Shown here one piece after another: positions 14,438-34,142 of a stretch of 64,000 nucleotides of DNA. The notes beneath the pieces are model-generated. The model was not told where the DNA came from and searched no databases. It saw nothing but the letters and a program-made list of their open reading frames with translations. Numbering within the stretch: position 1 is the stretch's first letter; each line of letters begins with the position of its first letter. Both the position numbers and the translations under genes were made by a program. The stretch comes from an uncultured Gammaproteobacteria bacterium (GTDB taxonomy: Bacteria > Patescibacteriota > Microgenomatia > UBA12405), in NCBI GenBank assembly GCA_964605545.1, contig CAZSCX010000001.1:16148-80147 (forward strand). Direction: 5' to 3'.

Positions 14438-14477
14438 TGCTACTTGATATTATGCTAATATTAATTGATAATTATTT

Positions 14478-16737: not shown

Positions 16738-16740
16738 AAT

Positions 16741-17352: not shown

Positions 17353-17355
17353 GCC

Positions 17356-19848
17356 GTGAAGAAGTGTCTATTTCTTTTTTTGTTTTTAGGTTTATTTTTG
17401 GCACCGTCAGTATTGGCGGAAGAGAATTACGATGGTTATTTAATTAAGTATAAGAGTGGAAAAATTGAGAAAAGTGCTACTAAACCGATGAATATAATGA
17501 GCGAGGGAGAGGAAAGTGATATTAAGTTTATTCAACCGAATTATATTTATGAAACGTGTGAAATTAGCGAGAACGATAAATATTGGTATTTAAAAAATAC
17601 CGGCCAAATATTTCAAGAAAAAAGTGGGGTTGGTATAAAAGGGAGGTCAGGGGTGGATTTAGGAAAAGAGGCAGCCGATGAACTAACAAGAAATGAGAGT
17701 AAACAAGACATAATTGTGGCCGTCTTGGATTTGGGGTTGGATTACAATGACACGATATTTACTGGGAAATTATGGAATGGAGAGAATTGTAAAAATGAGT
17801 TGGGGGAAACGATGGGAGGATGTAAAAATGGTTATGATTTTGTAAATAACGATAAAGATCCTTTGCCAAATAGTAGTGAAGATCATGGTACTCATGTGGC
17901 GGGGATAGTGGCATCAATTGCACCGAATGCGAAATTAATGATATTGAGAGTAGGGGCTGGGGGAACGATGCCGGCAGAAGCTATAAGCCGGGCAATTGAT
18001 TTTGCCAAAGTCAATGGGGCGAAGGTTATTAATGCTAGTTTTGCCTCTTCAAAAGGATCTGATGGAAAATATCCAGATATTTTTGATTTATTGATGTACG
18101 ATTCAATTAAAAATTTTGATGGACTTTTCATCAATGCGGCAGGAAATGAAAATACCAATATCGATACAGGAGTGACCGGCGGGAGACCGTTTCCGGCATC
18201 GTTAAAATATGGAATGGGAGGTTTTAACGAGCCATTGAAAAATATTTTTGTAGTTTCGGCAACGAATTATTATGATGATATTACTTATTTTTCCAATTTT
18301 GGTAAAGATACAGTAGATATCGCAGCAATGGGAGCAGGTATTTATGGAGTGAGTAATAACGGTGGTAGGGTTTATTATCAGGGGACTTCGATGGCGACAC
18401 CGATGGTTTCCGGAGTGGCGGCTTATTTGTTAGGCTTGAGACCAAGTATGAGTGTGGCCGAATTAATTTCTTTGATTTCCGGAAGCGGAATTAAGGCTGA
18501 GGGAGTGAAGGGGATGGTGTTAAGTGGAAGGAGATTAAATTTGGAAACGGCAGTGAGAAAAATGAAAAATATGGAATGGGATAGGGAAAGCAAGGGAAGT
18601 GAAGGGGTAAAAAGATTGAGTGACGGAAAAATAGGAGGAGGAATTTTTATGGAAATAAACAGTAAATATTTACCGGAATTTTTGTATCTCTATTTATCAG
18701 ATATGTCCAATTCGTTGCGATTGACAAGATGCAGTGAAATGAAATGCGAGAGTGTTAGTGAGACAAAGGAATTGTTAAAAGGAGGATTAAATCCAATTGC
18801 GTTTTCTTTGACAGCTGATGATCGGCCAATAATTTTGTCAGGGGGAACTTTTAGTTTATTAAAAATTTGTAAAGATAAAGATTGTATTGAATACAAAGAT
18901 GTGGGAAGTGGTAATTATGGAGTTAATGTATCAATTAATGGAGAAATAGATGTCGATAGCAAGGGTAGAATAGTCTGGACTTTTTATACGGCGGATAGAA
19001 ACTGGGTGATTTTGAATAGATGTGATGATGCGCAATGCACTAGTTACCAATCTTGGAAGACGGCTTCAATGATATCAAATGATTCAGAAGCGGCGTTGGA
19101 TTTAAAAATAGATAAAAGTGATCGAATATTTTTGGCATACAACGAACAAATTTCGGTTAAAAAATTAATTAAGTGTGATGATAATTTAAGCGATAGTTGT
19201 GATTTGTTGGGCACAGATAATCAATCAATTTATGGCTATGGAAATGCTTTGGCGATAGATAAAGATGACAATCTTTATTGGCTTTTACCGGCTAGTGGTG
19301 GTCTTAAGTTAAGTAGGTGTTTAAATGGTGATTGCCAGATAATAAATTCATTGATATCGGTGTCGGTTGATAGTGGGTCTTTGTTTATGAGTAAATTAAA
19401 AATGGTAATGAATGTTGGCGGAGTACCAATGATAACGATAGGTGATGATGGTGATAAATATGGAGTAAAAATAATTAAATGTAAAGACAAAAATTGTAGT
19501 CAGAGTGAGACGGTGATAATTGACAATCAATATGGTGTAGGGGAAAGTATGAGAATAAAAAGTGGGGCGGGAGGAATGGGTGGAGTGGCTTATTTGGATA
19601 CATTGTCGGCTGATTTGAAATATCATAGTTTTCTGAATTATTTTCCAGTGAAGTGTAGTGAGAATTATTTTGGTAAAAATCAAGGTGATTATAATTGCGA
19701 TAATTTAATTACTGGGGGAGATTATATTGTTTGGAGGAGAGAATTTTTGGATAAAAAAATTGGAGAAAAATTTGAGTCAGATGGAGATGGAGATGGTAGA
19801 TCTAGTCTGAGTGATTATTCGTTATGGAGAGAAGAGTATTTGAAATAA
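17356..19848 (+). CDS. subtilisin-like serine peptidase (S8) with C-x4-C repeat region and C-terminal dockerin-like domain; GTG start
   Basis: Catalytic triad contexts VAVLDLGLD, HGTHVAGIVAS and GTSMATPMVSG. Six [KR]C..x..C[ST/Q] repeats. C-terminus GDYNCDNLITGGDYIVWRREFLDK...DGDGDGRSSLSDYSLWREEYLK. Confidence 0.8.
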   Translation: MKKCLFLFLFLGLFLAPSVLAEENYDGYLIKYKSGKIEKSATKPMNIMSEGEESDIKFIQPNYIYETCEISENDKYWYLKNTGQIFQEKSGVGIKGRSGVDLGKEAADELTRNESKQDIIVAVLDLGLDYNDTIFTGKLWNGENCKNELGETMGGCKNGYDFVNNDKDPLPNSSEDHGTHVAGIVASIAPNAKLMILRVGAGGTMPAEAISRAIDFAKVNGAKVINASFASSKGSDGKYPDIFDLLMYDSIKNFDGLFINAAGNENTNIDTGVTGGRPFPASLKYGMGGFNEPLKNIFVVSATNYYDDITYFSNFGKDTVDIAAMGAGIYGVSNNGGRVYYQGTSMATPMVSGVAAYLLGLRPSMSVAELISLISGSGIKAEGVKGMVLSGRRLNLETAVRKMKNMEWDRESKGSEGVKRLSDGKIGGGIFMEINSKYLPEFLYLYLSDMSNSLRLTRCSEMKCESVSETKELLKGGLNPIAFSLTADDRPIILSGGTFSLLKICKDKDCIEYKDVGSGNYGVNVSINGEIDVDSKGRIVWTFYTADRNWVILNRCDDAQCTSYQSWKTASMISNDSEAALDLKIDKSDRIFLAYNEQISVKKLIKCDDNLSDSCDLLGTDNQSIYGYGNALAIDKDDNLYWLLPASGGLKLSRCLNGDCQIINSLISVSVDSGSLFMSKLKMVMNVGGVPMITIGDDGDKYGVKIIKCKDKNCSQSETVIIDNQYGVGESMRIKSGAGGMGGVAYLDTLSADLKYHSFLNYFPVKCSENYFGKNQGDYNCDNLITGGDYIVWRREFLDKKIGEKFESDGDGDGRSSLSDYSLWREEYLK

Positions 19849-19868
19849 TGTTAATATTTATTATATAA

Positions 19869-21605
19869 ATGAGGAATAATTTGAAAAGAATTTTGTTTAG
19901 TATGATTTTGATGATCGGATTGGTAGTGACAGGAGTGTTGGTACAAAGTACACAGGAGACGAGGCGTAGAGCGGCAGAAGGAGAAGTTTCATGTGGGGAA
20001 CAAGATGGAGTAGTTAGAATGGCGGGTGAGACTTGGTGTCAAGAGGGATCTCCTCAGATGGTTAAAAAATGTTTGAATGATAGTACTGTTTCTGTAAGTG
20101 AATTTGAATGTGGTCCTGGTGATGAATGTGTTAATGGAAAATGTGAATTTATTAAGGAAGGCTGTACGACTCCTGAATATGGTGGAAAGTTTTTTTCTCC
20201 TGGTCAAATAGTATGTGTAAGTGAAACAAGCTACAGGGAATGTCAGGCTAATAATCAATATAGTGAGATTAAATCCTGTGGAGAGAATCAGATATGTGAT
20301 TTTGGTATGTCTGGTTATCATTGTGTAAATAAAGATACGACTTGTATAGATTATGAAATGTCGAATCAATATAATACGGTTTATTATGCACCGGGTGAGG
20401 TATTGTGTAAAAGTGATAATAGTTATGTAAGATGTTTAGACGATAGTACTTTTTCTGCGGAATTAAAATGTGATGAAGGGTCACTTTGTTATCGAGGTAA
20501 GGGGTGTGTCAGAAATGGTGGATGTATAAGGGAAGGAAGATTGCCAGCTTTTGATGGAGATACATATTGTGATGATAATGATTTGAGTATTATAAAAACT
20601 TGCCTAGATAGTAATTGGTTAATTGATAAATGTTCCGAGGGAGAGGGTTGTGATAATCGAGATAATAATGAAAATCCGACGGCATTTAAGTGTGTAAAAA
20701 AAGTTGATAAATGTACTTGGAATGAGGCGGATTATAGTGTTGGAGAGAGAAGATGTGGAGAGGACAATCCTAAAGAAATATTTACTTGTACTGATTTTGG
20801 TTGGGATTTTGGAATGATTTATGATGGTAGTAATGTAACTTGCGAAACAAAAAAAGAATCATTTACTAATGGCAAGTGTAAATTATGTAAAAAGCCGTAT
20901 GTTTGTGATACAAGTGCTAAGAATGTTGGGGCGAGATTTTTAATAGATTTGGTGAGTGACGAGAATACTAATTTGGATGTGGGGACGACGATAGTTTTTG
21001 AGATTGGAGTGGACAGTACAGGACGGTCGATTACGGGAATTGATGCAGATCTGGATTTTGATGCAAGTATTCTTAAAATATTGAAAGTAGATAATTTAAT
21101 TAATTTATTAACAATGAAGGCGCCTTACGATAGTGGTGTTCTTTCTTTTTATAATGGTAACCCTGAAACTATTTATTCAAGAGTTTTTAAGAATGAAAAG
21201 ATTGCTAGAATTACTTTTGAAGTTTTGAAGAAAGTAAATAATTGGTCGATTAAATTTAAGTGTGTTAATAGTAGTATGACAGATTCGAATCTTTTGAATG
21301 CTGAAAATGGGGTGGTGACTGATTTAATTTCTTGTGGTGATAATGAGTGGTTTTATGTTGATGAAACGGGAAATAAACTGAACCAGAATCCTTTTGGATG
21401 TGATGAAAGTGCATTGAGACAAAATGATCCTAAATTTAGGGGAGATTATAATTGTGATGGGGATTTGACCGGGGGGGACTATATTGTTTGGAGGGGTGAG
21501 TTTATTGATAAAAAGTATGAGTTTGGAGTACAGTCTGATGGAAATTGTGACGGGAAAAGTAGTTTGATCGATTACTCGAGATGGAGAGAAGAGTATTTGA
21601 AATAG
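19869..21605 (+). CDS. Cys-rich surface protein with cohesin-like domain and C-terminal dockerin-like domain
   Basis: Leader ...VQSTQETRRRAAEGE. The cohesin-like segment (KIARITFEVLKK...SMTDSNLLNAENGVVTDLISCGDN) is near-identical in motif to 32782's. C-terminus GDYNCDGDLTGGDYIVWRGEFIDK...DGNCDGKSSLIDYSRWREEYLK. Confidence 0.5.
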   Translation: MRNNLKRILFSMILMIGLVVTGVLVQSTQETRRRAAEGEVSCGEQDGVVRMAGETWCQEGSPQMVKKCLNDSTVSVSEFECGPGDECVNGKCEFIKEGCTTPEYGGKFFSPGQIVCVSETSYRECQANNQYSEIKSCGENQICDFGMSGYHCVNKDTTCIDYEMSNQYNTVYYAPGEVLCKSDNSYVRCLDDSTFSAELKCDEGSLCYRGKGCVRNGGCIREGRLPAFDGDTYCDDNDLSIIKTCLDSNWLIDKCSEGEGCDNRDNNENPTAFKCVKKVDKCTWNEADYSVGERRCGEDNPKEIFTCTDFGWDFGMIYDGSNVTCETKKESFTNGKCKLCKKPYVCDTSAKNVGARFLIDLVSDENTNLDVGTTIVFEIGVDSTGRSITGIDADLDFDASILKILKVDNLINLLTMKAPYDSGVLSFYNGNPETIYSRVFKNEKIARITFEVLKKVNNWSIKFKCVNSSMTDSNLLNAENGVVTDLISCGDNEWFYVDETGNKLNQNPFGCDESALRQNDPKFRGDYNCDGDLTGGDYIVWRGEFIDKKYEFGVQSDGNCDGKSSLIDYSRWREEYLK

Positions 21606-21632
21606 ATGTTGAATATGTAATAATGAATTAGG

Positions 21633-23198
21633 ATGAAGAAAAAATTGTATGTTATTTTTGGATTGTTTGTTTTGACTTTGGCTTTGGGGGTGACGGTAAA
21701 ATTGAGTGAAAAACCACAGGAGATAAGGAGAAAGGCGGCGGAGAATAATCTTGAAACATCAACGGCCGTGGAAGTGCGTTGTGATACTTTTACCCCTTTT
21801 ACATTATCTAGTGTACCTGATGAACAAACATATCCTTTTAGTTTGACAGTAGGGGATATAAATGCAGATGGATTAAAAGATGTTTGTGTTGGTTTTTCTC
21901 ATAACACTTCTCATGAGGTAGTTCCTGGTTATCAGTGTATAAAAAATATTGATAACAAGGAGTATTTAGTTGGATCTTTATTGACGTTTAAGAGAACATC
22001 CTCCTATGCAGCAATATCGGTTGGCTTCGTCGGTGGTACTGATTTTGTATATACACCAGGAACTACATTGGCGTCGTTATATATTATGAATAATACATTG
22101 AAAACGGGGAATCAATTGCTGTCTAATATTGTTAGTTTTTATGAGCCTAACGTAACCAAATTGGGACCGAATATTTTAACTACCGATTTAAACAATGATG
22201 GATATCAAGAGATTGTTTCTTCTGATCAAGATTATGCAATTCAAGTTTTTTTTAATAAAAAAGATGGTACTTTTAATACTTATGTTGATTATAGTGTGCC
22301 ATACGGTTATCATTTTACAGCAGTGGCAGATTTAAAAGGAGATGGGAGTAAAGATGATTTAATTGTTTCATCTTTTCAAAAAAGACAAATAAGTGTGTTG
22401 TTGAATAATGGTGCAGGTTTACTTGGTGCGGCAGTGGGATATACCGTGCCTTCTGATGTTCAGTATGTATCTCCATATGGAATAACGGCGGCTGATTATA
22501 ATGGTGATGGTTTGGATGAAGTGGCTGTTGTTTCTGGTGCATATGGTATAGATACGGTATTGAGTATTTTTGATAATTTGGGTAAGGGGAAATTGAGCCT
22601 TTCAAAAACTATTCGTGGTGACAAATTGGATGATTCTCGATCAACTTGGGTGACTTCTTTGGATCTTAATGGAGATAATTATATTGATATTGCAGCTACT
22701 ATGGGTAAAGACAAAATAACTTTCCTTTATAATGACGGGAAAGGGAATTTTAGTGAGGAAAATATGGATATTTATGATTCCGGTTATGGCTATCCGGCTG
22801 ATTTGAGGGCTGAGGATATTAATGGAGATGGTCAAAAAGATCTTTTATATGTACTTCGTAATTCAGATAAGTTAATGGTTTATTTGACATGTAAAAAAGA
22901 AAGTACTCCAACTCCTACGATTATGCCGGCGGAGGGCTTGTGCAAAAGTGTGGTTCTGGATTCATTGCATCCAGAATGTTTGGTAAGTTGCAAGAAAACA
23001 GATGCAAATTATGTTGGTATGGATAAATGGGGGGCAGATTATAACTGTGATGGGGATGTGACTGGTGGAGATTTTATAGTTTGGAGAAGAGAATTTTTGG
23101 ATAAAATTGTGGGTGATTCTTTGCAATCTGATGGCAATTGTGACAATAAAGTAAGTTTGGCCGATTATTCTAAATGGAGAGAGGAGTATTTAAAATAA
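21633..23198 (+). CDS. FG-GAP repeat beta-propeller protein with C-terminal dockerin-like domain
   Basis: Leader ...KLSEKPQEIRRKAAEN. Six D-x-N-x-D-G repeats (DINADGLKD, DLNNDGYQE, DLKGDGSKD, DYNGDGLDE, DLNGDNYID, DINGDGQKD). C-terminus ADYNCDGDVTGGDFIVWRREFLDK...DGNCDNKVSLADYSKWREEYLK. Confidence 0.65.
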   Translation: MKKKLYVIFGLFVLTLALGVTVKLSEKPQEIRRKAAENNLETSTAVEVRCDTFTPFTLSSVPDEQTYPFSLTVGDINADGLKDVCVGFSHNTSHEVVPGYQCIKNIDNKEYLVGSLLTFKRTSSYAAISVGFVGGTDFVYTPGTTLASLYIMNNTLKTGNQLLSNIVSFYEPNVTKLGPNILTTDLNNDGYQEIVSSDQDYAIQVFFNKKDGTFNTYVDYSVPYGYHFTAVADLKGDGSKDDLIVSSFQKRQISVLLNNGAGLLGAAVGYTVPSDVQYVSPYGITAADYNGDGLDEVAVVSGAYGIDTVLSIFDNLGKGKLSLSKTIRGDKLDDSRSTWVTSLDLNGDNYIDIAATMGKDKITFLYNDGKGNFSEENMDIYDSGYGYPADLRAEDINGDGQKDLLYVLRNSDKLMVYLTCKKESTPTPTIMPAEGLCKSVVLDSLHPECLVSCKKTDANYVGMDKWGADYNCDGDVTGGDFIVWRREFLDKIVGDSLQSDGNCDNKVSLADYSKWREEYLK

Positions 23199-23241
23199 TG
23201 AGAAACTTTACATTAATAAATTTATTATGTAATAATTATTT

Positions 23242-24006
23242 ATGAAAAAAAGGATTAGTGGTGCAGTACAAATACCTATTTTGGTTGGTTTATTAATAGT
23301 AGCGGCGGCTTTACCGATAGTTTCAAAATTGACACAAAAAAGTCAGGATGTGCGTAATTTGGCGGCCGAGGGAGAGGTAACGGCAACTCCGACATGTAAT
23401 CCAAATGCTTGTAGTCAGACTACCGGATGTACGATGAATAGATGTTCTCCTGGTGATGCTATCCAAACAAATTGTACTTTGTGTGCTCCAATTCCAACGG
23501 CTGATCCGAATTATACGGCGGGATGTAATAATAATTGTTCTAACTGTGCGGCAACGGATACACCAATTCCGACAAACACTCCGACTAATACACCGATTCC
23601 AACTAATACTCTAGTACCGACAATGGCTTGTACTATTAGTCAAAAATTAATTGATGATGGAGTGACAATTAAGGCATACAAGGTTAATGCCGATAAATCA
23701 GTTGGAAATGAAGTTACATTTAATGTTTCTACTGGTCAATTGGGTATTGATGATAGTTTTAATAGTAATATGGTTCTTTTTGAAGTGACGATTAGTAAAA
23801 AAAGTGGAGTAAAAAATGTAGGATTGCTTTTTAAAAGTAAAGATGGAACCATTAATGCTTCAGCTTGGACTAGCGGAAGTGTGTCTGGAACTGGTTTAAG
23901 TTTTTATAGTAGTCCGACTACAAGTGGGGATTTGGTAGCCAAGTTTCCGTTACAGTTAAGTTTTACCAAAAGTGTTCAAGTTGATATTTCAGTCCAATAT
24001 TATTAA
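23242..24006 (+). CDS. pilin-like-leader Cys-rich protein with Thr/Pro linker
   Basis: MKKRISG-AVQIPILVGLLIVAAALP leader and SQDVRNLAAEGE. A TDTPIPTNTPTNTPIPTNT linker precedes a C-terminal beta domain. There is no dockerin. Confidence 0.4.
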   Translation: MKKRISGAVQIPILVGLLIVAAALPIVSKLTQKSQDVRNLAAEGEVTATPTCNPNACSQTTGCTMNRCSPGDAIQTNCTLCAPIPTADPNYTAGCNNNCSNCAATDTPIPTNTPTNTPIPTNTLVPTMACTISQKLIDDGVTIKAYKVNADKSVGNEVTFNVSTGQLGIDDSFNSNMVLFEVTISKKSGVKNVGLLFKSKDGTINASAWTSGSVSGTGLSFYSSPTTSGDLVAKFPLQLSFTKSVQVDISVQYY

Positions 24007-24015
24007 TAGTATAAA

Positions 24016-25311
24016 ATGAAAAAAAATAGTGTCTGGGCAATTTTAGCATTGGCGGTGGTGGCGGTGGCTTTGCCAATGGCAGTGGAATTGACGGGGAGGT
24101 CAGCGGAATTAAGAAGGAAAGCAGTTGATTTTATGGAAAATTGTAGTTGTACTAATGCGACTTCGGCAGAATGTACAAGTTTGAAGGCTAATGGGATTGC
24201 TTACAAACCGTGTAATGCTTGTAACGAATTTTGTGGAGATCCTATCGCATGTAATGAGGGGGATCCGGTGGATTGGAGATTGCCGGCTTTTAAATGTAAT
24301 ACTCCGGGACATGAAGTACAAGTTTCTTGGGCTTGGTATTGTGATGATCCTGATTATTGGGACACTGAATGTCCCCTGGATACGGTTGATGTTGATAAAT
24401 GCCAATGTTGTAAGTTAGATGTTTATGTTGCGGGTAAAACTTTTCATTGTACAACGTCAGTGTGGGTTCCGGGGGCTACTTTAACACCAACAGAGGTGCC
24501 TACTCAGGTACCAACGGAAATACCAACATCGATACCGACTAATACAATAGCGCCGACAGCAACTAATACGCCAACAGAAACTTTGACTCCGACAATAACG
24601 CCGATACCGCCGGTGTGTGAATGTACTACTAGTGATTATTGTTATGATGCTATTGCTGATTTTGGTGGAAAACAGTGGAATCCGTGTGTGGCATGTGAAT
24701 CGATGTGTGTGGCCAAAGATAAGGGAGAGAATTTGGCTCCGGAATCATTGGCTAAAAAATATGATTGTCCTAGCTTGGGGATACAGTTGAATTTAGGTGA
24801 ATATTGTCAAAATCCGATAAATTTTGAACATTGTGGTTTAGATATTGATCCGTGTCTGTGTTGCAATTTAACTGGTATTACCGGTTATTTTGGGAATGTA
24901 GGGGAGTGTACTTCGGCAATATGTAAATATATTCCAACACCGACTTTTACACCAACGCCGTTTCCATATTGTACGCCGGTGCCGTGTCCGATAGGAGGTA
25001 AATTTTCTTGTCCTGTTGATAAAGCTCCTTGTCTTGGGGGTTGTGGAATGGAGTGTTTGACCCCGACACCAACCGAAACACCTGCGGAATGTCCGGTGAG
25101 ATGTGAAATGGAAGATGAAAATTATGAGGGAATGGATAAATGGGGTGGAGATTATAATTGCGATGGAAGTTTGACCGGTGGAGATTTTATGATTTGGCGA
25201 ATAGAATTTTTGGATAAAATTGTGGGTGATTTCTTAAAATCAGATGGAAATTGTGATGGTAAGGTAAGTTTAGCTGATTATTCAAAATGGAGAGAAGAGT
25301 ATCTAAAATGA
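24016..25311 (+). CDS. Cys-rich surface protein with TP-rich linkers and C-terminal dockerin-like domain
   Basis: Leader ...VELTGRSAELRRKAVD. C-terminus GDYNCDGSLTGGDFMIWRIEFLDK...DGNCDGKVSLADYSKWREEYLK. Confidence 0.45.
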   Translation: MKKNSVWAILALAVVAVALPMAVELTGRSAELRRKAVDFMENCSCTNATSAECTSLKANGIAYKPCNACNEFCGDPIACNEGDPVDWRLPAFKCNTPGHEVQVSWAWYCDDPDYWDTECPLDTVDVDKCQCCKLDVYVAGKTFHCTTSVWVPGATLTPTEVPTQVPTEIPTSIPTNTIAPTATNTPTETLTPTITPIPPVCECTTSDYCYDAIADFGGKQWNPCVACESMCVAKDKGENLAPESLAKKYDCPSLGIQLNLGEYCQNPINFEHCGLDIDPCLCCNLTGITGYFGNVGECTSAICKYIPTPTFTPTPFPYCTPVPCPIGGKFSCPVDKAPCLGGCGMECLTPTPTETPAECPVRCEMEDENYEGMDKWGGDYNCDGSLTGGDFMIWRIEFLDKIVGDFLKSDGNCDGKVSLADYSKWREEYLK

Positions 25312-26783
25312 AAAAGTTGGTATTACTGGTAGTGTTTGTATTTTTTTTAAGTTTTGGTAAGGTGATTTTAGCGGAAACTTGTAGCCCAACATGGGTGTCT
25401 TTGGATAAGATATACACTGGGGGAATTTTTTTGGATATAGGGAAAGATAATAAACCTATGGTTCTTTATACAGAGTATATAAAAACAGGATCAGTGAATG
25501 GATCGCGTTTTTTAAAATGTACATCGAATGATTGCAAAAGTTTTAATGATATTAATTTTGATGGTCTTTTCCAGTGGTGGAGTGGAGGGGCAGGAAATTT
25601 TTCTGATGGAAGCGTTGCTTTTGTAATGGTTACTAATAATATGGATATGTATTTTGTGAAATGTAGTGATGATAAGTGTTCCAATTATACAAAGATTTTG
25701 TTCAAAAAAGATATTGTTATGGATAGAGATAATACTAATTATGAAATTAAAGCTAATTCTCCTAGTCAAGTAGTAGTTGATGGAAATGATTTACCATTTT
25801 TTTATTTTACACAGAGTTTTGTTTATGGAAGTGGAACCCAAGGAGATCCGTATATCGATTTGTATTTAGTGCGATGTAGTAAGAAGGATTGTAGTGAATA
25901 CAAGGTGAATAAGATTGATAAGATTTTAAATGTACCCAATGATTCTGTTACAGGTACAATAGATAGTGAAAATAAACTGATTATTTTTCATACCATTGGT
26001 GATCAGCAATTGATTTTGAATTATAATGGGACAAAAACATTAATCGATGAGGCTGCGTATCAATGTACCAATAGAAGCGAATTGGGTTTTTTATCGATGT
26101 ATTTGGGAAATGATGGTAATCCGGTTTTAAATTATATTAAGAGGGTTGGAAGTGGTGATGGTTGTACTAATAAATATATTACGGTTTTTTGTAAAAATAA
26201 AACTTGTACAGAAAAAAATGTAATAGATACCGTAAAAGGTATTAATATGAAAAAAGGGAGAGAAGGATATCCGGTTTATGAATATGTAGATAAATACAAC
26301 AGCGGAGTTATTGTTTGTAAAAATGCCGATTGTTCGGAAAAAATTCAAAGATCGGTTTTGACCGATTGTAATCCGGATTTTAATCTTTGTCCGCGTTTTG
26401 TAGATTTTGAATTAGATAATGAATTCAAACCGGTGTTTTTAATTAACCGATGGGTTTCTGGGTTGGGTCATTATGTACTGGATATTTACCGATGCTGTAC
26501 AGTCGATTGTGGGACAACATTTGAACCTCTTAATTGGTATGGGACATGTAAAAACGTTGTGGATGAAGCAAGAGGGTGTACCAAGTGTGAAAGTGATAGT
26601 TATCAGGGAATGAATCGTTGGGGTGGGGATTATAACTGCAGCGGAGATTTGACGACAGGTGATTATATTGTTTGGAGAGATGAATTTTTGAAAAAAGGAA
26701 CAGAGAGAAATGCCGATGGTGATTGTGACGGAAAAACGAGTTTGTCAGATTATTCAAAGTGGAGAGAGGAATATTTGAAGTAA
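25287..26783 (+). CDS. secreted C-x4-C repeat protein with C-terminal dockerin-like domain (paralog A)
   Basis: Sec-type signal ...VILA-ETCSP. Repeats FLKCTSNDCKSF, YFVKCSDDKCSNY, YLVRCSKKDCSEY, VFCKNKTCTEK, VCKNADCSEK. C-terminus GDYNCSGDLTTGDYIVWRDEFLKK...DGDCDGKTSLSDYSKWREEYLK. Confidence 0.5.
   Translation: MERRVSKMKKLVLLVVFVFFLSFGKVILAETCSPTWVSLDKIYTGGIFLDIGKDNKPMVLYTEYIKTGSVNGSRFLKCTSNDCKSFNDINFDGLFQWWSGGAGNFSDGSVAFVMVTNNMDMYFVKCSDDKCSNYTKILFKKDIVMDRDNTNYEIKANSPSQVVVDGNDLPFFYFTQSFVYGSGTQGDPYIDLYLVRCSKKDCSEYKVNKIDKILNVPNDSVTGTIDSENKLIIFHTIGDQQLILNYNGTKTLIDEAAYQCTNRSELGFLSMYLGNDGNPVLNYIKRVGSGDGCTNKYITVFCKNKTCTEKNVIDTVKGINMKKGREGYPVYEYVDKYNSGVIVCKNADCSEKIQRSVLTDCNPDFNLCPRFVDFELDNEFKPVFLINRWVSGLGHYVLDIYRCCTVDCGTTFEPLNWYGTCKNVVDEARGCTKCESDSYQGMNRWGGDYNCSGDLTTGDYIVWRDEFLKKGTERNADGDCDGKTSLSDYSKWREEYLK
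26502..26567. repeat. 66-nt stretch identical to 28017..28082 (also 26179..26230 = 27697..27748), marking a recent tandem duplication or gene conversion
   Basis: Direct comparison of the two paralog genes; the shared stretch is gtcgattgtgggacaacatttgaacctcttaattggtatgggacatgtaaaaacgttgtggatgaa. Confidence 0.8.
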
Positions 26784-26810
26784 GCCATAAGTGTGTCATA
26801 ATTAAATGAA

Positions 26811-28298
26811 ATGAGGAAGTTATTGTTTTTATTATGTTTAGGAATTTTTTTGGGTACAGGTGGTGTGGTGTTGGCAGAAACATGTAGTCCGACAGAGGTG
26901 TCTTTGAATAGGGAAAAAACTGGAGGAATTTTTTTGAATATTGGTAAAGATAATAAACCTGTGGTTCTTTATACGGAATATAAGACGAGTATGGTTACAG
27001 AATCGAGTTTTTTAAAATGTACGACTGACGATTGTAGTGATTTTGGGGAAGTTGATTTTTCTTCGATATTTCCTTTAGAAAATGGGGGAGTAGGTGTGTT
27101 TAGCGATGGAAGCGTGGCTTTTATGATGGTGAGTGAGGGTGAAAACAATAATATGTATTTTGTAAAATGTAGCGATAATAAATGTACTAGTTATACAAAA
27201 ACTTTATTTAAAAGTGATTTTGTTAAAGATAGTAATTTGAATATTTTTCGTAATTCTCCAGCCCAAGTTTTTATTGACAAGAACGATTTGCCTAATTTTT
27301 ATTTTCGGCAAAGTTTTACCGATGGAACTAGAATGGATCAATATTTGGATATATATCTAGTAAGATGTAGTAAAAAGGATTGTAGTGAATACAAAGTAAA
27401 TAAGATAGATAAAGTAATAGCTGAGGCAGCTATTGACGGTTTTTGGGGGCAAACTTTTGTGGTAGATAATGATGACAAAACTGTTTTGGAGTATTTGATG
27501 TTGGAATACGAAACAGGAGATTTGCAATTGGTTTTAAATTATGATGGAACAAAAACGATAATTGATGAAGCCGAGAATAGGTGCTACAACAGAAGTGAAT
27601 TGATGTTGCCGTCGATGTATTTAGGAAACGATGGTAATCCTGTTTTAAATTATATGAAAAGAGTTGGGAGTGCCGATAGTTGCACAACCAAATACATTAC
27701 GGTTTTTTGTAAAAATAAAACTTGTACAGAAAAAAATGTAATAGATACGGTTAAGGGTTTTAAAATGAGAAAAGGAAGGGAGGGTTATCCGGTTTATGAA
27801 TATTTGGATGGAGGAGACAGGGGGGTTATAGTTTGTAAAAATGCCGATTGTTCGGAAAAAACACAAAAGGCAATTTTGACCGGATGTAATCCTAATTTAA
27901 ATGTTACGTGCCCAGGTTTTGTTGATTTTAAATTGGACAATGAATATAAACCGGTTTGGTTGATAAATAGGGTGATTTCTAGTAAGAATATTTTGTCAAT
28001 TTATCGATGTTGTACGGTCGATTGTGGGACAACATTTGAACCTCTTAATTGGTATGGGACATGTAAAAACGTTGTGGATGAAACAAGAGGGTGTACTAAG
28101 TGTGAAAGTGATAATTATCAAGGAATTAATCGTTGGGGAGGGGATTATAATTGTAGTGGGGATTTAACAGCCGGGGATTATATTGTTTGGCGAGATGAAT
28201 TTTTTAAAAAGGGAACGGAGAGGGAGGCGGATGGGGATTGTGATGGTAAAACGAGTCTTTCCGATTATTCAAAATGGAGAGAGGAGTATCTTAAATAA
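26811..28298 (+). CDS. secreted C-x4-C repeat protein with C-terminal dockerin-like domain (paralog B, tandem duplicate)
   Basis: Colinear with 25287..26783 and shares perfect 52-nt and 66-nt nucleotide stretches with it. Confidence 0.5.
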   Translation: MRKLLFLLCLGIFLGTGGVVLAETCSPTEVSLNREKTGGIFLNIGKDNKPVVLYTEYKTSMVTESSFLKCTTDDCSDFGEVDFSSIFPLENGGVGVFSDGSVAFMMVSEGENNNMYFVKCSDNKCTSYTKTLFKSDFVKDSNLNIFRNSPAQVFIDKNDLPNFYFRQSFTDGTRMDQYLDIYLVRCSKKDCSEYKVNKIDKVIAEAAIDGFWGQTFVVDNDDKTVLEYLMLEYETGDLQLVLNYDGTKTIIDEAENRCYNRSELMLPSMYLGNDGNPVLNYMKRVGSADSCTTKYITVFCKNKTCTEKNVIDTVKGFKMRKGREGYPVYEYLDGGDRGVIVCKNADCSEKTQKAILTGCNPNLNVTCPGFVDFKLDNEYKPVWLINRVISSKNILSIYRCCTVDCGTTFEPLNWYGTCKNVVDETRGCTKCESDNYQGINRWGGDYNCSGDLTAGDYIVWRDEFFKKGTEREADGDCDGKTSLSDYSKWREEYLK

Positions 28299-28341
28299 TT
28301 TGATTGATTGACTTAGTATTTTAGGAATGTTTTAATTAAAT

Positions 28342-30822
28342 ATGAGTTTTAATGTACGAAGATGTGGATTGATACAATTACCTATTTTGATTGGAATTTT
28401 AATAATCTCAGTAGCAATTCCTGCCTTGACGGTTTTGGTACAAGAGAATCAAGATGTTAGAAATCGAGCGGCGAATGGGGATAAAATAATTTGTGAAAGA
28501 TGTAGTAAAAATAGTAGTTGTGAATGGGTAGTGTATGAAGTTGATGCTTCTGTGGGGTGTGATGTTTTATATGAATCACAGATGACTATTATTAGTAGGA
28601 CGGCAAAATGCGAATGTGGAAAAGTTGCTAATGCAACTGATTCTAGATGTGGAACAGTGAGTACCGGTGGGTGTACAGGGACAAAATGTAATGCCGCTGG
28701 CGATACATGTTGTATTAATTCTTTTAATGGTGGAACAATACCATATTGTGAAGCTGGTTTTGTCTGTGATATGAATTCAAGTTCAAGTTTATTTGGAAAG
28801 TGTATTAAACCTTGGAGTAGTACTCAACAATGTAATAGGTGTAGTAGTAATAGAAATTGTTATCGAGCCTATTTTGAAGCTCCTTATCCGGGAGATTGTG
28901 CTACCATAGAACCTCTTTCTACTTCTCTTATTAAATATGTTTATGAGGCTGGTTGTTGTGCTGGTGGGGGAGATACTACTCCTCCGACTCAAAAATGGTA
29001 TTACTGTGATGGGACACAGAGTACTTGTAAAGTAGATACCAATACTTATGCTGATTCAGCCAGTTGTTCGGCGGCTCATGGAGGTAGAACTTGTTATTAT
29101 TATGATGAAGAGGCTGGATGTAATAGTTTATGTGCAGCGGCGGATTATAAATATTATTGTGATACAACATGTAAAAAGACAACTGAAAAGTTTGCTGGTG
29201 CGGATTGTTCGGCAGTTTTGGGAAAAGCTTGTTATTCGACCAGTAATTGTAATGGAGTATGTCCAACTTCTGGAACTTCTTGTTCAGGGAGTGAAGGTAC
29301 AGTTCCAAGTGGATCTTGGGGGTGTCAAAGTTTGAGTACGAGAGCCTATTGTTTAAATGGTGTGTGGTCAAGCTCGAATAGTGAATATTGTCAGTACGAT
29401 TGTAAAGATGGTAGATGTAATTCAGCTCCGCCTACAACATGTAATGATTATCAGGGAAATCCAATTTCGGCTGGTTTTTGGGGTTGTAAGACAGCAACTA
29501 CAAGAGCGTGGTGTAATTCAGGTGTTTGGATAAATGATTATAATTGTGCTACGAATGGTGGTACTTGTGTGAATGGTGAGTGTCAAACTGTGGCAGCATG
29601 TAGTAAAGTTGGCGATACTTGTTGTTTAGGTGGTGCTACTGGGAAATTTTGTAATAATAGCTTAGTCTGTGGTAGCGATAGCAAATGTGCAAGTTCTTGT
29701 GGCATAGAAAATTACCCGTGTTGCTATAATCCGAATGGTGCTGGTACTTGTACAAACAGTTTCGGCTCTCCTTATTTAAAGTGTGTGGCTGACAAGTGTG
29801 TTAAAGATCCAGAACGATGTTTTTTGAATTTTGGTACTGCTACTACTGTGATATATGAGGATACTTTTTGCTATCGAGAGAGTGGAAAACCAGAGACGAT
29901 AAGAAAGTGTGAATATGGTGGTAGTACTACTTTTGTGACTAATTGTAGTTTTAGTTGTATGGCTGGTAGAAATATAGGAGAGCCTCTTGTTGCGGAATGT
30001 TGTGGTGGCTTGAATGAGACTTGTTGCTCTGGCACTGAGTGTTCTCCTGGTTTGAGTTGTATTAGTGGGGTTTGTAAGAATCCGACAACAAATGTTTGTG
30101 GAAATAGACCAGATGGGACAGCGAGAGTGCCTGGAGAATCATGGTGTGTAGATAATAAATTATATGAATGTATTAACCCAACAGGTACTTTGATAAATCT
30201 TAAAACTACTACTTGTATCGATGGTTGTATAAAACTTACCAATACTACAGCAAAATGTAATGTGGTGAAGAAATATTGGCAACATGATGCAGTGGCGAAT
30301 GGCTATAATTGTTCGACCGATAGTCGTTGGATGTGTACAGAAACTACTACAGTAACTAAGTTTGCCGATAAAGCTAGTTGTGAAAATGATGTTGGTTGTG
30401 ATGTTACTTTTTATAGATATACATGTAATCCTGTTACCGGTAATTGGAGTTGTGTAAATACACCGCAAACCGGCCAGCCTTCTTATTCGGAAGTAACTTA
30501 TGGATCTGCGGCAGCGGCGGAACAAAAATGTATTACTGATGATCCAAGTGATTTGTGCAAGAAAACATCTACTTGTTCAGTATGTTCAGAGGAAAAGAAT
30601 GGTTATGTTGGACCAGATAAGAGCGGAGGAGACTATAATTGTGATGGAGTTTTGACAACAGGTGATTATATTGTTTGGCGTGGAGAGTATTTGGATTATG
30701 TTTTAAAACGGGTTAACAAAAATAGATATGTGGCCAATGGTAATTGTAAAAATAATCCTGATTTGTATTATTTAACTGGAACTAGAGATTATTCTTTATG
30801 GAGAGAAAATTATTTAAAATAA
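28342..30822 (+). CDS. hyper-cysteine-rich surface protein (826 aa, ~100 Cys) with pilin-like leader and variant C-terminal dockerin
   Basis: MSFNVRRCG-LIQLPILIGILIISVAIP leader and NQDVRNRAANGD. Repeated GSWGCQ..C.NGVW / GFWGCK..C.SGVW modules. C-terminus GDYNCDGVLTTGDYIVWRGEYLD...NGNCKNNPDLYYLTGTRDYSLWRENYLK. Confidence 0.5.
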   Translation: MSFNVRRCGLIQLPILIGILIISVAIPALTVLVQENQDVRNRAANGDKIICERCSKNSSCEWVVYEVDASVGCDVLYESQMTIISRTAKCECGKVANATDSRCGTVSTGGCTGTKCNAAGDTCCINSFNGGTIPYCEAGFVCDMNSSSSLFGKCIKPWSSTQQCNRCSSNRNCYRAYFEAPYPGDCATIEPLSTSLIKYVYEAGCCAGGGDTTPPTQKWYYCDGTQSTCKVDTNTYADSASCSAAHGGRTCYYYDEEAGCNSLCAAADYKYYCDTTCKKTTEKFAGADCSAVLGKACYSTSNCNGVCPTSGTSCSGSEGTVPSGSWGCQSLSTRAYCLNGVWSSSNSEYCQYDCKDGRCNSAPPTTCNDYQGNPISAGFWGCKTATTRAWCNSGVWINDYNCATNGGTCVNGECQTVAACSKVGDTCCLGGATGKFCNNSLVCGSDSKCASSCGIENYPCCYNPNGAGTCTNSFGSPYLKCVADKCVKDPERCFLNFGTATTVIYEDTFCYRESGKPETIRKCEYGGSTTFVTNCSFSCMAGRNIGEPLVAECCGGLNETCCSGTECSPGLSCISGVCKNPTTNVCGNRPDGTARVPGESWCVDNKLYECINPTGTLINLKTTTCIDGCIKLTNTTAKCNVVKKYWQHDAVANGYNCSTDSRWMCTETTTVTKFADKASCENDVGCDVTFYRYTCNPVTGNWSCVNTPQTGQPSYSEVTYGSAAAAEQKCITDDPSDLCKKTSTCSVCSEEKNGYVGPDKSGGDYNCDGVLTTGDYIVWRGEYLDYVLKRVNKNRYVANGNCKNNPDLYYLTGTRDYSLWRENYLK

Positions 30823-30825
30823 AAT

Positions 30826-32160
30826 ATGACAAATAATAAAAATAAACTTTTTGTTTTATTAATAATATTGGCAGTATCTATTTTTGGGTCGGTAATGCTG
30901 ACAAGACAAACACAAGAGCTAAGAAGGAAGGCAGCTGATGGTTATATTCAATCTTTTGAACCAGTTTCAATAACTGGTATGAAAGTGGGAGGGACAGCGT
31001 CGGTAACTGTTTTAGCAGAAACACCTTTAGGTTTTAAATCGGCGACTATTCTGATTTGTTACCCTGATTATTTGAAGGAACTAACAAAGGATGATATTAA
31101 ATTATCGGATTATTTTACAATTGATTTACCGCCGATTCGAAGAGTTGATTTGGGTTATAGTGGAAAAATTTGTTCGGTAATAGAGGCGATGGTGAGTATA
31201 GATGATGCAACTAAAACTGGAGCGCCAGCAGGAATATCTCAGGTGGCGAAGCTTACTTTTACCGGAAATAAGGTTGGAACTGGTGGTAAGATAGAAGCAA
31301 TTATTGGTCCTGTTTCCGGTAGAGAATATGGTAAAACGACCGATAAGAATTTTAGATCATTGGTTTCCGGTGATTTTACAGACGGACAAGATAAAGTCTT
31401 TAGCACTGTTGGGTCTGTTGATATTAGTGTTGAAGGTGATAAGAAATATGTTAGAGGAGATTGTGATTTTAGTACTGGTAAATATGAATGTACAGAGAGT
31501 GCTAATGGGACTATGGATTTGGCTACTTGTGAGACAGATACAAATTGTTATGTTAAAGGTGATGATTATGTTTTGAAGTTTAGAGTTATTTTTCCAGGTG
31601 TTTGGCCGCAAAATAAATTTATTGATGGTTATGAAAAAGTTAGTTTATTGGTTGAATCAGCAGTTGGTACGACTTGGTTGGGAGATGTAACAATGACAAA
31701 GGTGGCAAAAGAAGAGACAACCGATATAAAAGACGGTGATATTCAATATCAGGTGTATCAGGCGTCGGTGCCATTGAAAGGTTTTAATTACAACAAGGAT
31801 TTAGCGGTAACTATAAAAGGAGTAAAGCATTTAGGAATGAGGTTTGGCGAAGATAATCAAAAAGGTTGCTATAGATCGATGATAGGAAAAATTGGTTCGA
31901 CTAATGCTTTAACAAAAGATGAGACTACAACACCTTTGTTTAACTTCATTAAAACTCCATTACCGGGCGGTGATGTTGATAATAATGATATTGTGAATGC
32001 GGCCGATTATTCTCAGGTTAAGTCAAAAATGTTGACTTGTGATAATGCCAAGTGTGGGGAGGATATTAATGGTGATGGAATTATAAATAGTACTGATGCC
32101 AGTTATATTAATTTAACAGTCTCTGACAAATGTGGAGACTGGTGGACTACAGGAGAATAA
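30826..32160 (+). CDS. surface protein with cohesin-like domain and C-terminal dockerin (DVDNND type)
   Basis: Leader ...LTRQTQELRRKAADG and cohesin-like AKLTFTGNKVGTGGKIEAII. C-terminus GGDVDNNDIVNAADYSQVKSK / DINGDGIINSTDASYIN. Confidence 0.5.
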   Translation: MTNNKNKLFVLLIILAVSIFGSVMLTRQTQELRRKAADGYIQSFEPVSITGMKVGGTASVTVLAETPLGFKSATILICYPDYLKELTKDDIKLSDYFTIDLPPIRRVDLGYSGKICSVIEAMVSIDDATKTGAPAGISQVAKLTFTGNKVGTGGKIEAIIGPVSGREYGKTTDKNFRSLVSGDFTDGQDKVFSTVGSVDISVEGDKKYVRGDCDFSTGKYECTESANGTMDLATCETDTNCYVKGDDYVLKFRVIFPGVWPQNKFIDGYEKVSLLVESAVGTTWLGDVTMTKVAKEETTDIKDGDIQYQVYQASVPLKGFNYNKDLAVTIKGVKHLGMRFGEDNQKGCYRSMIGKIGSTNALTKDETTTPLFNFIKTPLPGGDVDNNDIVNAADYSQVKSKMLTCDNAKCGEDINGDGIINSTDASYINLTVSDKCGDWWTTGE

Positions 32161-32776
32161 TATGAAAAATATTAGTAAAAATACTTTTTACTGGATAATA
32201 CCAGTTTTTTGTCTTGTTATAATTTTTCAAGCGGTGGTTTTAGTAAATAGTACTTTAAACCAAAAAACTACGATGACGGCCAGTAAATCGGCAGATGTCA
32301 ACGATAAAGAGAGTCAGGTGAAATTAGTGCCGGAAGTTGATTTGGGTTTGGTGGCCATGGAAACTGAATGGAAAATAGGTAAGAAATATAAGGTAACTTT
32401 TGAGGCAACTTCGAAACAGACCAGATTAATAGATGCAATGGATTTATATGTCAAATATGATAAAGATGCTTTTACGGTAAGTAATTTACTTTCCGGAGAT
32501 GGTTTACCAAAACCAACTTCCAGCAAAATTAGCACCAAAACCGGTTTGTTGGTAGCTAATATTTATATTCCGGTGAACGAGAATTATAAAATGGAAAAGG
32601 CGGTAAAAAAGACACTTTTGACTTTTGAAGTTACACCAAAGAAGTTAGGGGATTTTACTTTTGAAATTGATACTGGAAAAGTAGTAAAAGAATCTGTTAC
32701 TATGATAGTAGAATCAAAAACTGCTAAGGTTTTACCTTTTGCAGCAGAGATGTTAGCGGTTAAAGTAATTAAATAG
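32132..32776 (+). CDS. membrane-anchored cohesin-like domain protein
   Basis: Single TM helix (FYWIIPVFCLVIIFQAVVLV) followed by a beta-sandwich-like body (KKTLLTFEVTPKKLGDFTFEID). Confidence 0.4.
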   Translation: METGGLQENNMKNISKNTFYWIIPVFCLVIIFQAVVLVNSTLNQKTTMTASKSADVNDKESQVKLVPEVDLGLVAMETEWKIGKKYKVTFEATSKQTRLIDAMDLYVKYDKDAFTVSNLLSGDGLPKPTSSKISTKTGLLVANIYIPVNENYKMEKAVKKTLLTFEVTPKKLGDFTFEIDTGKVVKESVTMIVESKTAKVLPFAAEMLAVKVIK

Positions 32777-32781
32777 AATTA

Positions 32782-33474
32782 ATGAAAAATGTAATCAAAA
32801 TATTGCCCATTTTGATTTTGTTGATGGGTTTGTCGGTTAAGCCTGTAAGTGCAGCGGCGAGATTGACGTTGGATCCTGCGACAAAGAATCTGAAGGTTGG
32901 GGAATCAATGGAAATAGCCGTTAATGCTTATTCAGAAACAAAAACAGTAGCTGGTATTGATGCAGTAATAACTTTTGATTCTGCTAAGCTTGAAGCATCA
33001 AGTGTATCACTTGCCTATACTGGGTTGTCGTTTAAACAAACTGTATCAGGTAACAAGATTACAATTGCTTTATATAAAGAAAATTATACTGAATTGGGTG
33101 CGACGGCGATAAATGGCAAGGTAGCAACGATAGTTTTCAAAGCAAAAGAAACCGGTACAGCAACGGCTAGATTTACTTGTACAACTTCGACAATGACGGA
33201 TTCCAATATTTTGAATATGGATGGGGGAACTGTAACTGATATTATTTCTTGTGTGGACAATGGAACCGGTACTTATGAAATAAGTGCGTCTTCGTCAGCG
33301 ACAGCAACAAGTACACCGACAACAGCTGCAAGTAGTAATACAAATACACCAACTCCGATACAGACGACTACAGCGGCACAATTGCCAAAGACGGGTAGTA
33401 CCGAGACAACTGTATTCTTGACTATATTTGGGTTATTAGGTGTAGCTGGAGCGTTTATTTTGAGAGCTTTATGA
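32782..33474 (+). CDS. cohesin-like domain protein with LPXTG sortase cell-wall anchor (putative anchoring scaffoldin)
   Basis: Signal peptide and a cohesin-like body (GKVATIVFKAKETGTATARF...TMTDSNILNMDGGTVTDIISC). A Thr/Ser/Pro linker leads to LPKTG, a hydrophobic stretch and RAL at the C-terminus. Confidence 0.65.
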   Translation: MKNVIKILPILILLMGLSVKPVSAAARLTLDPATKNLKVGESMEIAVNAYSETKTVAGIDAVITFDSAKLEASSVSLAYTGLSFKQTVSGNKITIALYKENYTELGATAINGKVATIVFKAKETGTATARFTCTTSTMTDSNILNMDGGTVTDIISCVDNGTGTYEISASSSATATSTPTTAASSNTNTPTPIQTTTAAQLPKTGSTETTVFLTIFGLLGVAGAFILRAL

Positions 33475-34142
33475 GAGGTGCAGCGAAAGTAAAAACAATT
33501 TTGGTAATTATTATATTGTTATTGGTTGGGGTTTTAGGAGTAGTTGGGGTGGGAGCGGTTAGGACTTATATGTCTGGCGCAGCTGCAGATGCTGGACCAA
33601 AAACAGTCAGTGCAATTATAAGTAACGATGGTAGTTCGGCGACAATTAGTTTTTCGACTGACAAAAAGGTTATTCCTACAATTTTGTACGGGACTTCACC
33701 GACGACGATGTATTTGAGCAAGGTAGCGGCTGAGGAATCAACAGAATTCAATATAAATTTGTCTCCATTGAAAGCTAACACTCAGTATTATTATGCGATC
33801 AAAATTGCCGATACTACTTATGATAATGCGGGTATCCCTTATTCTTTTTCGACAACTGCCAAGAGTAGTAGCAAAACAACAGAAGCAGCGGTGACATCAA
33901 CACCTATACCGACGGTAGCGACTTCTAGTGCCAGTACCAAGACAGAATGTAATAAGGAGACTGATTATAATAATGATGGTGTGATTAACACTATTGACTA
34001 TGTACTTTGTAGCAGTGGCAAAGTAACCGGAGCACCGGCAGCGAGTGCCAGTTCGGCTCCAAGTTGTAGTGGAACTGATTACAATAATGACGGAACAATA
34101 AATGCCGTTGATGAACTGTTGTGTAGACAAAAAGCGAATTAA
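33471..34142 (+). CDS. membrane-anchored FN3-like domain protein with two C-terminal dockerin-like repeats
   Basis: N-terminal TM helix and an FN3-like segment (TISFSTDKK...TQYYYAIKI). Repeats ETDYNNDGVINTIDYVLC and TDYNNDGTINAVDELLC. Its ATGA overlaps the previous stop. Confidence 0.5.
   Translation: MRGAAKVKTILVIIILLLVGVLGVVGVGAVRTYMSGAAADAGPKTVSAIISNDGSSATISFSTDKKVIPTILYGTSPTTMYLSKVAAEESTEFNINLSPLKANTQYYYAIKIADTTYDNAGIPYSFSTTAKSSSKTTEAAVTSTPIPTVATSSASTKTECNKETDYNNDGVINTIDYVLCSSGKVTGAPAASASSAPSCSGTDYNNDGTINAVDELLCRQKAN

Follow-up and report, generated by a model that had tools for sequence, protein, structure and literature searches.

The window analysed here is a 64 kb stretch of contig CAZSCX010000001.1 (positions 16,148 to 80,147, forward strand). 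Its open reading frame (ORF) 32782..33474 on the + strand starts with ATG and encodes a protein of 230 residues; this gene and the others are named below after their first nucleotide in the window. The 32782 protein is probably a single-cohesin anchoring protein of a Shapirobacteria-type bacterium of the Microgenomates, within the candidate phyla radiation (CPR). A preliminary description, made from the sequence letters, had proposed this ORF as a wall-bound scaffold for dockerin proteins. The ORF was confirmed, and the overall reading was supported by hidden Markov models (HMMs), the predicted fold, the sorting signal and the dockerins found nearby. The evidence also supports the assignment of the protein to a known class, the sortase-anchored single-cohesin anchoring proteins. 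Its architecture is not new, as ScaE and Sca2 have it and homologues are automatically annotated as cohesin or LPXTG proteins, one of them by JGI as 'LPXTG-motif cell wall-anchored protein'.

The CPR bacteria, or Patescibacteria, are thought to be attached to hosts, and their surface machinery is almost unknown. Substrates of the Microgenomates sortase were named in none of the literature found, and the 32782 family is a conserved, clade-wide candidate for such a substrate. The family also suggests that the cohesin-dockerin 'plug and socket', best known from cellulosomes, serves in ultra-small bacteria for the display of proteases and adhesin-like proteins. The results below define a binding matrix of three dockerin types and three cohesin-like modules.

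Architecture of the 32782 protein and its sorting signal

The signal peptide of the 32782 protein was assigned to aa 1-25 (32782..32856, +). The Sec-type N-terminus, MKNVIKILPILILLMGLSVKPVSA followed by Ala-Ala, was judged by eye from its n, h and c regions and the VSA-A cleavage site, and the same pattern was kept across the homologue alignment. The cohesin module occupies aa 26-170 (32857..33291, +). Pfam Cohesin (PF00963) matched aa 34-150 with 39.9 bits, compared with a gathering cutoff of 24.1 (E = 6e-10). The AlphaFold2 (AF2) model, built from 19 homologues, was all-beta with 12 beta-strands and reached a predicted local distance difference test (pLDDT) score above 90 over aa ~30-170. 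When the model was compared with the PDB by Foldseek, the top 50 matches were cohesins without exception, with E values of 8e-9 to 1e-5 and target template-modelling (TM) scores up to 0.77. The best fit was obtained with type I cohesins (e.g. 1g1k, TM 0.77). The type III cohesin of ScaE (2zf9, TM 0.58) and the non-cellulosomal cohesins 2xdh, 2vo8, 2jh2 and 2w1n were also among the matches. Cys133 and Cys157 of the module were invariant in the homologue alignment.

The cohesin is followed by a Thr/Ser/Pro/Ala-rich stalk, aa 171-200 (33292..33381, +), with pLDDT below 50, which is presumed to be a wall-spanning linker. No SLH domain was detected in the protein by the Pfam scan. The signal peptide, the cohesin-like body and the Thr/Ser/Pro linker named in the preliminary description were all borne out, the body both by the HMMER search with the cohesin model and by the structural prediction which that description had proposed as tests.

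The LPKTG sortase recognition motif (aa 201-205; 33382..33396, +) is located 25 residues from the C-terminal end and precedes 22 hydrophobic residues and the residues R-A-L. The hydrophobic helix STETTVFLTIFGLLGVAGAFIL, together with the R-A-L tail and the stop codon, covers 33397..33474 (+) and corresponds to a helix at residues 208-229 of the AF2 model. Two curated models of sorting signals scored above their cutoffs, PF00746 (Gram_pos_anchor) with 29.6 bits compared with 20 and TIGR01167 with 22.1 compared with 15.9. In a motif scan of the window, this was the sole LPXTG-type tail in any real ORF.

The motif was examined in 58 orthologues from different species. LPx[T/A/S]G, placed about 25 residues from the C-terminus and followed by a hydrophobic helix, was present in all 58; 52 of the motifs were LPxTG, five LPxAG and one LPxSG. 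The sequence of the stalk was hypervariable, while its composition was kept and its median length was 29 aa. Since LPx[TAS]G was retained in every orthologue next to such a variable stalk, the sorting signal is under selection. This conservation is the strongest evidence obtained for the existence of a recognising transpeptidase. An exhaustive profile search of 1.84 billion representatives resulted in 253 family clusters at E <= 1e-30. The best 150 of the 253 clusters included 137 small proteins, and the motif together with the tail was found in 125 of these. A few family members had a degenerate motif or only a transmembrane helix.

The FN3-dockerin candidate partner and the conserved five-gene module

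The next gene, 33471..34142 (+), encodes an N-terminal helix (aa 5-37), an FN3-like domain (aa 44-127; nt 33600-33851), a Ser/Thr linker and a dockerin (aa 160-218; nt 33948-34124). The stop codon TGA of 32782 (33472-33474) and the start codon of 33471 (33471-33473) overlap as ATGA, as had been described before. The corresponding overlap was 4 nt in 29 of 58 loci, and in nearly all the others the two genes overlapped or were separated by no more than 4 nt.

A dockerin was defined as two repeats of ~22 residues, each with a 12-residue Ca2+ loop (D/N at positions 1, 3, 5, 9 and 12) followed by a helix, and both repeats were found in the 33471 protein. Its calcium loops, DYNNDGVINTID and DYNNDGTINAVD, follow the pattern D-x-N-x-D-G-x-x-N-x-x-D, which was invariant in four orthologues. 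Each loop is bracketed by a pair of cysteines kept in the family. The Dockerin_1 model (PF00404, cutoff 22.9) matched in two stretches, scoring 27.0 bits with the whole protein and 31.5 bits with the isolated tail. In a PDB sequence search with the tail, dockerins came first. The AF2 model began with the N-terminal helix and a confidently predicted FN3-like sandwich; after a disordered linker came two units of loop and helix, with the helices at 174-181 and 212-222. The two dockerin-like repeats reported earlier for this gene were thus confirmed by the domain score, the PDB search and the model. Fold matches of the sandwich were FN3 domains, and Pur_ac_phosph_N scored 23 bits with the protein, below its cutoff. 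The number of homologues found for 33471 was 56.

To this family belongs one subclade (L042, L045-L047, L049, L055, L061-L065, L067) in which the FN3 partner carries a single Cys-bracketed helix-loop-helix instead of two repeats, with the pattern C..EFKEKFGTSD..YDFDDNGTVNT.DW..CL. The cohesins of the same subclade mostly end in LPETG or LPDTG signals with tails devoid of a basic residue.

When the alignment of the 33471 partner was used to scan a single genome of each species, 60 loci were obtained. About half of them are titled Shapirobacteria, Woesebacteria or Patescibacteria, and most of the others bear apparent placeholder labels ('uncultured Gammaproteobacteria'). Candidatus Shapirobacteria, the NCBI name of the 32782 homologues, belong to the Microgenomates group of the Patescibacteria/CPR. 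In 58 of the 60 species-representative, Shapirobacteria-type genomes, the FN3-dockerin gene followed immediately after the cohesin gene, and a membrane cohesin-like gene preceded the LPXTG cohesin in 55 of these 58 loci. In L004-L009, for instance, the LPXTG cohesin gene is flanked by a gene for a membrane cohesin-like protein of ~205 aa on the 5' side and a helix-FN3-dockerin gene of ~250 aa on the 3' side. Two more genes usually lie 5' of this triad; the product of one is rich in Cys and has a tail of the DFNCDG...DFSVWK type, and that of the other carries a second type of dockerin.

The 32782 gene is the fourth of a tightly packed, conserved five-gene module with the order Cys-rich protein with tail A, dockerin B protein, membrane helix with cohesin-like domain, LPXTG cohesin, and helix-FN3-dockerin C. 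The module is placed between rseP and rpsU-yqeY-ybeY-dnaX, and it was described nowhere in the literature found on cohesin, dockerin or sortase in Shapirobacteria or CPR. In the window, module gene 1 (28342..30822, +) encodes 826 aa, 10.5% of them Cys, and its C-terminus is dockerin-like of type A with a degenerate second repeat; its orthologues in L004 and L008 are Cys-rich as well and end in DFNCDG...DFSVWK tails. Module gene 2 (30826..32160, +) encodes a secreted protein with a C-terminal type-B dockerin, which scored on Dockerin_1 27.3 bits as a whole protein and 30.6 bits as a tail (cutoff 22.9). The same kind of tail was found at the orthologous positions in L004, L006 and L008. Module gene 3 (32162..32776, +) combines an N-terminal membrane helix with a cohesin-like domain at aa ~71-167. 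This domain was recognised by the family HMM (E = 3e-8) and scored 16.6 bits on Pfam Cohesin, below the cutoff; the hhalign comparison of the 32782-family and 32162-family alignments gave E = 4.6e-5.

Besides 32782, the window contains at least 12 dockerin-like tails and up to five cohesin-like modules, and the number of the tails exceeds the list given in the preliminary description. Nine window proteins (13292-30822, +) share at the extreme C-terminus a near-identical type-A tail of two repeats, GGDYNCDGxLTxGDYIVWRxEFL...DGNCDGKxSLxDYSKWREEYLK. The second dockerin type, B, was found on two window proteins, 30826 and 14478. The tails of 14478 and of the nine type-A proteins were below the Dockerin_1 cutoff, with canonical paired calcium loops. 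Cohesin-like modules were detected by the family HMM in 19869, 13292, 14478 and 32162. The first three of these also carry dockerin-like tails and have, therefore, an adaptor-like architecture.

A direct comparison was made with the paralogue 19869..21605 (+), in which a cohesin (aa 352-493) is part of a Cys-rich protein with a type-A dockerin-like end. The 19869 protein scored 25.2 bits on Pfam Cohesin, above the cutoff, and 5.5e-19 with the family HMM. Aligned by BLASTP, 32782 and 19869 were 31% identical over 143 aa (E = 2e-15), and the shared residues included SSMTDSN(I/L)LN...VTD(I/L)ISC. The relationship of the two modules, which had been proposed from shared strands, was in this way upheld, although the ATIVFKAKETG strand named in that proposal is only loosely common to them. 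Six or more Cys-rich repeats are situated ahead of the 19869 cohesin. The large relatives of the cohesin subfamily contain several cohesins and have a dockerin at the end, e.g. P0080 beside GH44. One relative, L071 4650-11480 (JGI Ga0616349_0002182), has 2,276 aa, in which nine cohesin stretches of the 32782 subfamily and Big_7/fn3 spacers are accompanied by a dockerin at the C-terminus. Its neighbours are GH44, a pair of cupredoxins and another two cohesin proteins, in a classical primary-scaffoldin layout.

Proposed function and alternative explanations

According to the proposed mechanism, the 32782 protein would be exported by the Sec pathway with removal of the signal peptide, and a disulfide would be formed between Cys133 and Cys157. 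A housekeeping sortase, presumably encoded elsewhere in the genome, would cut between Thr204 and Gly205 and join Thr204 to peptidoglycan, so that the stalk would position the cohesin on the outer side of the wall. There the cohesin may catch the Ca2+-binding dockerin of at least one co-encoded secreted protein. The candidate clients are the FN3-dockerin protein and/or the type-A/B set comprising the subtilase, FG-GAP and Cys-rich proteins. The expected outcome is a wall-bound surface assembly for attachment or extracellular processing, not for cellulose breakdown.

A close known counterpart is ScaE of Ruminococcus flavefaciens and R. champanellensis, in which, as in 32782, one cohesin and a linker lie between a signal peptide and a C-terminal LPXTG. 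Its gene is clustered with those of dockerin-bearing partners, and ScaE is the socket by which other scaffoldins, a peptidase and adhesins (CttA) are held on the wall (PMC5301203). The Sca2 protein of the R. bromii amylosome similarly has a single cohesin and a sortase signal; it binds dockerins of non-glycosidase proteins, e.g. peptidases, and was proposed to be a general surface-anchoring device (PMC4611034). The features of the ScaE/Sca2 type found with 32782 were the single cohesin with the sortase signal and the dockerin proteins of the same cluster. The systems differ in several respects. The ScaE cohesin is of type III and resembles that of 32782 less (TM 0.58, 13-14% identity) than type I cohesins do (up to 0.77). 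The ScaE partners are X-module-dockerin dyads and carry the cellulosome, whereas the candidate clients of 32782 are FN3, subtilase, FG-GAP and Cys-rich proteins. Unlike in the ScaE system, the dockerin of the present module is Cys-bracketed, the host is a CPR bacterium and the genes are located beside housekeeping genes. Sca2 has 534 aa, originates from a Firmicute and serves mainly GH13 amylases, with the binding shown by experiment, while 32782 is known from sequence and models.

The SLH-anchored scaffoldins SdbA, OlpB and Orf2p of Acetivibrio/Clostridium have the same role, a wall-displayed cohesin holding dockerin components (PMC11557425). However, they are attached non-covalently via SLH domains, which 32782 does not have, and their cohesins are of type II. 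The glycosidase/toxin complexes of Clostridium perfringens and the cohesin of Archaeoglobus fulgidus are, like 32782, examples of cohesin and dockerin outside cellulose degradation, but these cohesins occur in large enzymes or stand alone, without a sortase signal or a conserved five-gene module. In the Saccharibacterium Southlakia epibionticum, dockerin-domain and FN3-domain envelope proteins were determined as essential by transposon sequencing (PMC10633639). Their surface location in a CPR bacterium, their dockerin and FN3 domains and their implication in the epibiotic lifestyle (PMC10633639) are similar to the module studied here. The species represents another CPR lineage, its paper describes no cohesin or sortase-anchored partner, and the likeness is one of domain description. 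The dockerin-bearing proteins of the window were FN3, S8 subtilase, FG-GAP and Cys-rich proteins, and no cellulase or amylase was found among them. By analogy with the systems above, the 32782 protein would work like an anchoring scaffoldin and would not be part of a cellulosome.

Several observations weigh against the reading of 32782 as a wall-anchored socket for the adjacent dockerin protein, and they concern the choice of the partner, the anchoring and the nature of the tails. As to the partner, the mirror-tree comparison of 51 species showed that the divergence of dockerin C correlated with that of the two cohesins (r = 0.51 and 0.61) and hardly with that of its own FN3 domain (r = 0.12). 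When each cohesin was controlled for the other, the partial correlation of dockerin C was 0.09 with the LPXTG cohesin and 0.40 with the membrane cohesin. The signal was significant, but differences in rate and saturation, as well as common phylogeny, confound it. Because of the confounding by rate and saturation, the result was treated only as a caution against assuming that the adjacent 33471 is the partner. The downstream dockerin C may, by this measure of sequence divergence, belong to the upstream cohesin-like protein 32162.

In a different wiring of the module, the LPXTG cohesin would be the wall socket for type-A and/or type-B proteins, and the FN3-dockerin protein 33471 would plug into the membrane cohesin-like 32162. 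The candidate plugs for the LPXTG cohesin would then be the protease, FG-GAP and Cys-rich proteins and the 19869 adaptor. Apart from the closer tracking of dockerin C with the membrane cohesin, this arrangement is favoured by the content of the minimal module, with three cohesin-like modules and three dockerin types, and by the many type-A clients of the window that need a socket. On the other hand, the mirror-tree values carry the confounders mentioned, the tightest gene coupling (ATGA) joins the LPXTG cohesin to the FN3-dockerin gene, and the type-A tails are sub-threshold dockerins. The rewired module was therefore considered a serious but tentative alternative, somewhat less probable than its opposite.

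In a broader and rather doubtful proposal, Shapirobacteria-type CPR would have in this module a core organelle of their envelope, made up of the membrane-anchored cohesin-like protein, the LPXTG cohesin of the wall, the helix-FN3-dockerin protein and two more dockerin proteins. Three orthogonal cohesin-dockerin pairs would connect the membrane and the wall with proteases or adhesins exposed at the surface. The near-universal and otherwise unexplained Microgenomates sortase would find its main conserved substrate system in the module, which would also be a platform displaying lineage-specific host-attachment proteins, marked by the shared type-A tail and an N-terminal Q-E-x-R-x-K-A signal.

The anchoring of the 32782 protein was weighed against the possibility that sortase processing does not occur and that the C-terminal helix is a membrane anchor, the cohesin being tethered to the membrane and not to the wall. 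Neither the 64 kb window nor the 10 kb on either side of the module in 71 related loci revealed a sortase; the sequence scanned amounted to 997 kb (the window and 933 kb of related loci). The scans relied on a motif, on phmmer and on two HMMs; the positive controls reached 1e-49, and a consensus-like probe was validated on the PDB. The scan of viral contigs revealed only class C sortases, on large contigs, and the protein search revealed at least 120 class D-like environmental sortases among the matches listed, none of them labelled CPR. The charged tail is minimal, being a single Arg (R228) in the 32782 protein; among the 125 relatives with motif and tail, K or R was present within the last six residues in 101 and absent in 24. 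With one Arg only, the LPKTG, hydrophobic stretch and RAL, which the preliminary description had called textbook, are not quite so, despite the scores of both curated models. The few family members with a degenerate motif or only a transmembrane helix are also consistent with a membrane anchor. In contrast, the retention of LPx[TAS]G in 58 of 58 orthologues, with its distance to the C-terminus fixed and the stalk beside it hypervariable, is hard to explain without a recognising enzyme, and both sorting-signal models are above their cutoffs. In addition, the sortase family is described as near ubiquitous in Microgenomates (PMC6744442), and a closed related Microgenomates genome encodes a sortase (PMC7143001). 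From this clade-level literature, a sortase would be expected in the same genome as 32782, and the membrane-anchored form was judged unlikely.

As a further possibility, the cohesin-fold domain would bind no dockerin. It could be a beta-sandwich of a generic kind, either an adhesin or a carbohydrate-binding module, and the calcium-loop repeats could be unrelated EF-hand or structural motifs. The sequence identity of the 32782 cohesin to characterised cohesins was just 10-21%, and in the PDB sequence-profile search its top non-antibody matches were cohesins with marginal E values of ~1e-3. Non-cellulosomal cohesin-like modules with an unknown partner exist. Isolated type-A tails scored 15.8-22 bits on Dockerin_1 (cutoff 22.9) or were undetected, and they matched EF-hand pairs (EF-hand_7) equally well. 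However, cohesin-like and dockerin-like modules co-occur in one conserved, translationally coupled module in 58 genomes, both module types are combined in 19869, 13292 and 14478, and relatives with nine cohesins and a dockerin exist. The Pfam scores of the cohesin and of dockerins B and C were above the cutoffs, and the absence of binding was regarded as quite improbable.

Polymerisation by a pilus-type sortase was rejected, as no pilin motif and no class C sortase were found nearby and the body of the protein is a cohesin fold.

Further surface proteins and genomic context of the window

The secreted-protein cluster of the window spans 10633-34142 (+) and is inserted between rpsB-tsf-frr-rseP and rpsU-yqeY-ybeY-dnaX-recR. 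Its candidate clients, all on the + strand, begin with 13292-14437 (type-A tail) and 14478-16304 (type-B tail), both of which are also cohesin-like. They are followed by the S8 subtilase 17356-19848, the FG-GAP protein 21633-23198, the protein 24016-25311 and the tandem paralogues 25287-26783 and 26811-28298, all with type-A tails. Several of the proteins with type-A tails contain 5-10% Cys.

The proteins 10633-13314, 24016-25311 and 28342-30822 (+) are secreted, contain 8-10.5% Cys and have no Pfam domain. CPR bacteria encode the MdbA/VKOR disulfide machinery (PMC6744442), with which the Cys-rich secreted proteins of the window are in agreement. The sole glycosidase near the cluster, a GH39 protein at 9342-10607 (-), has an N-terminal helix and a QQDIRKDA signature and is devoid of a dockerin.

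An N-terminal signature is common in the cluster (10633-32160) and was also present in L004, L008 and L009. It consists of a hydrophobic helix and, immediately after it, Q-[ED]-x-R-[RN]-[RK]-A, in many cases with G-L-A-Q-I-P-L ahead. When the strict pattern was searched in 1,601 ORFs, 29 of its 30 occurrences were N-terminal, and 19 of these 29 proteins ended in a dockerin-like loop. The signature may be a dedicated signal or a cleavage site for clients. The LPXTG cohesin 32782 does not carry it.

The window has 35% GC and an extreme excess of G over C on the + strand. Over 1-56000, the GC skew was +0.30 to +0.46 per 4-kb window and 0.06-0.17 where the genes are on the - strand. Such a strand composition disparity has been reported for related Microgenomates (PMC7143001). 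A homologue of the TrwB/VirD4-like type IV coupling ATPase is encoded at 2712-4865 (-), and locus L008 of Shapirobacteria has the same gene on the upstream side of its module. Inside the surface-protein cluster, 16288-16737 (+) encodes a type IV pilin-like protein (N_methyl motif, T2SSG-like), and the gene next to it, 16741-17352, showed a faint cohesin-like match.

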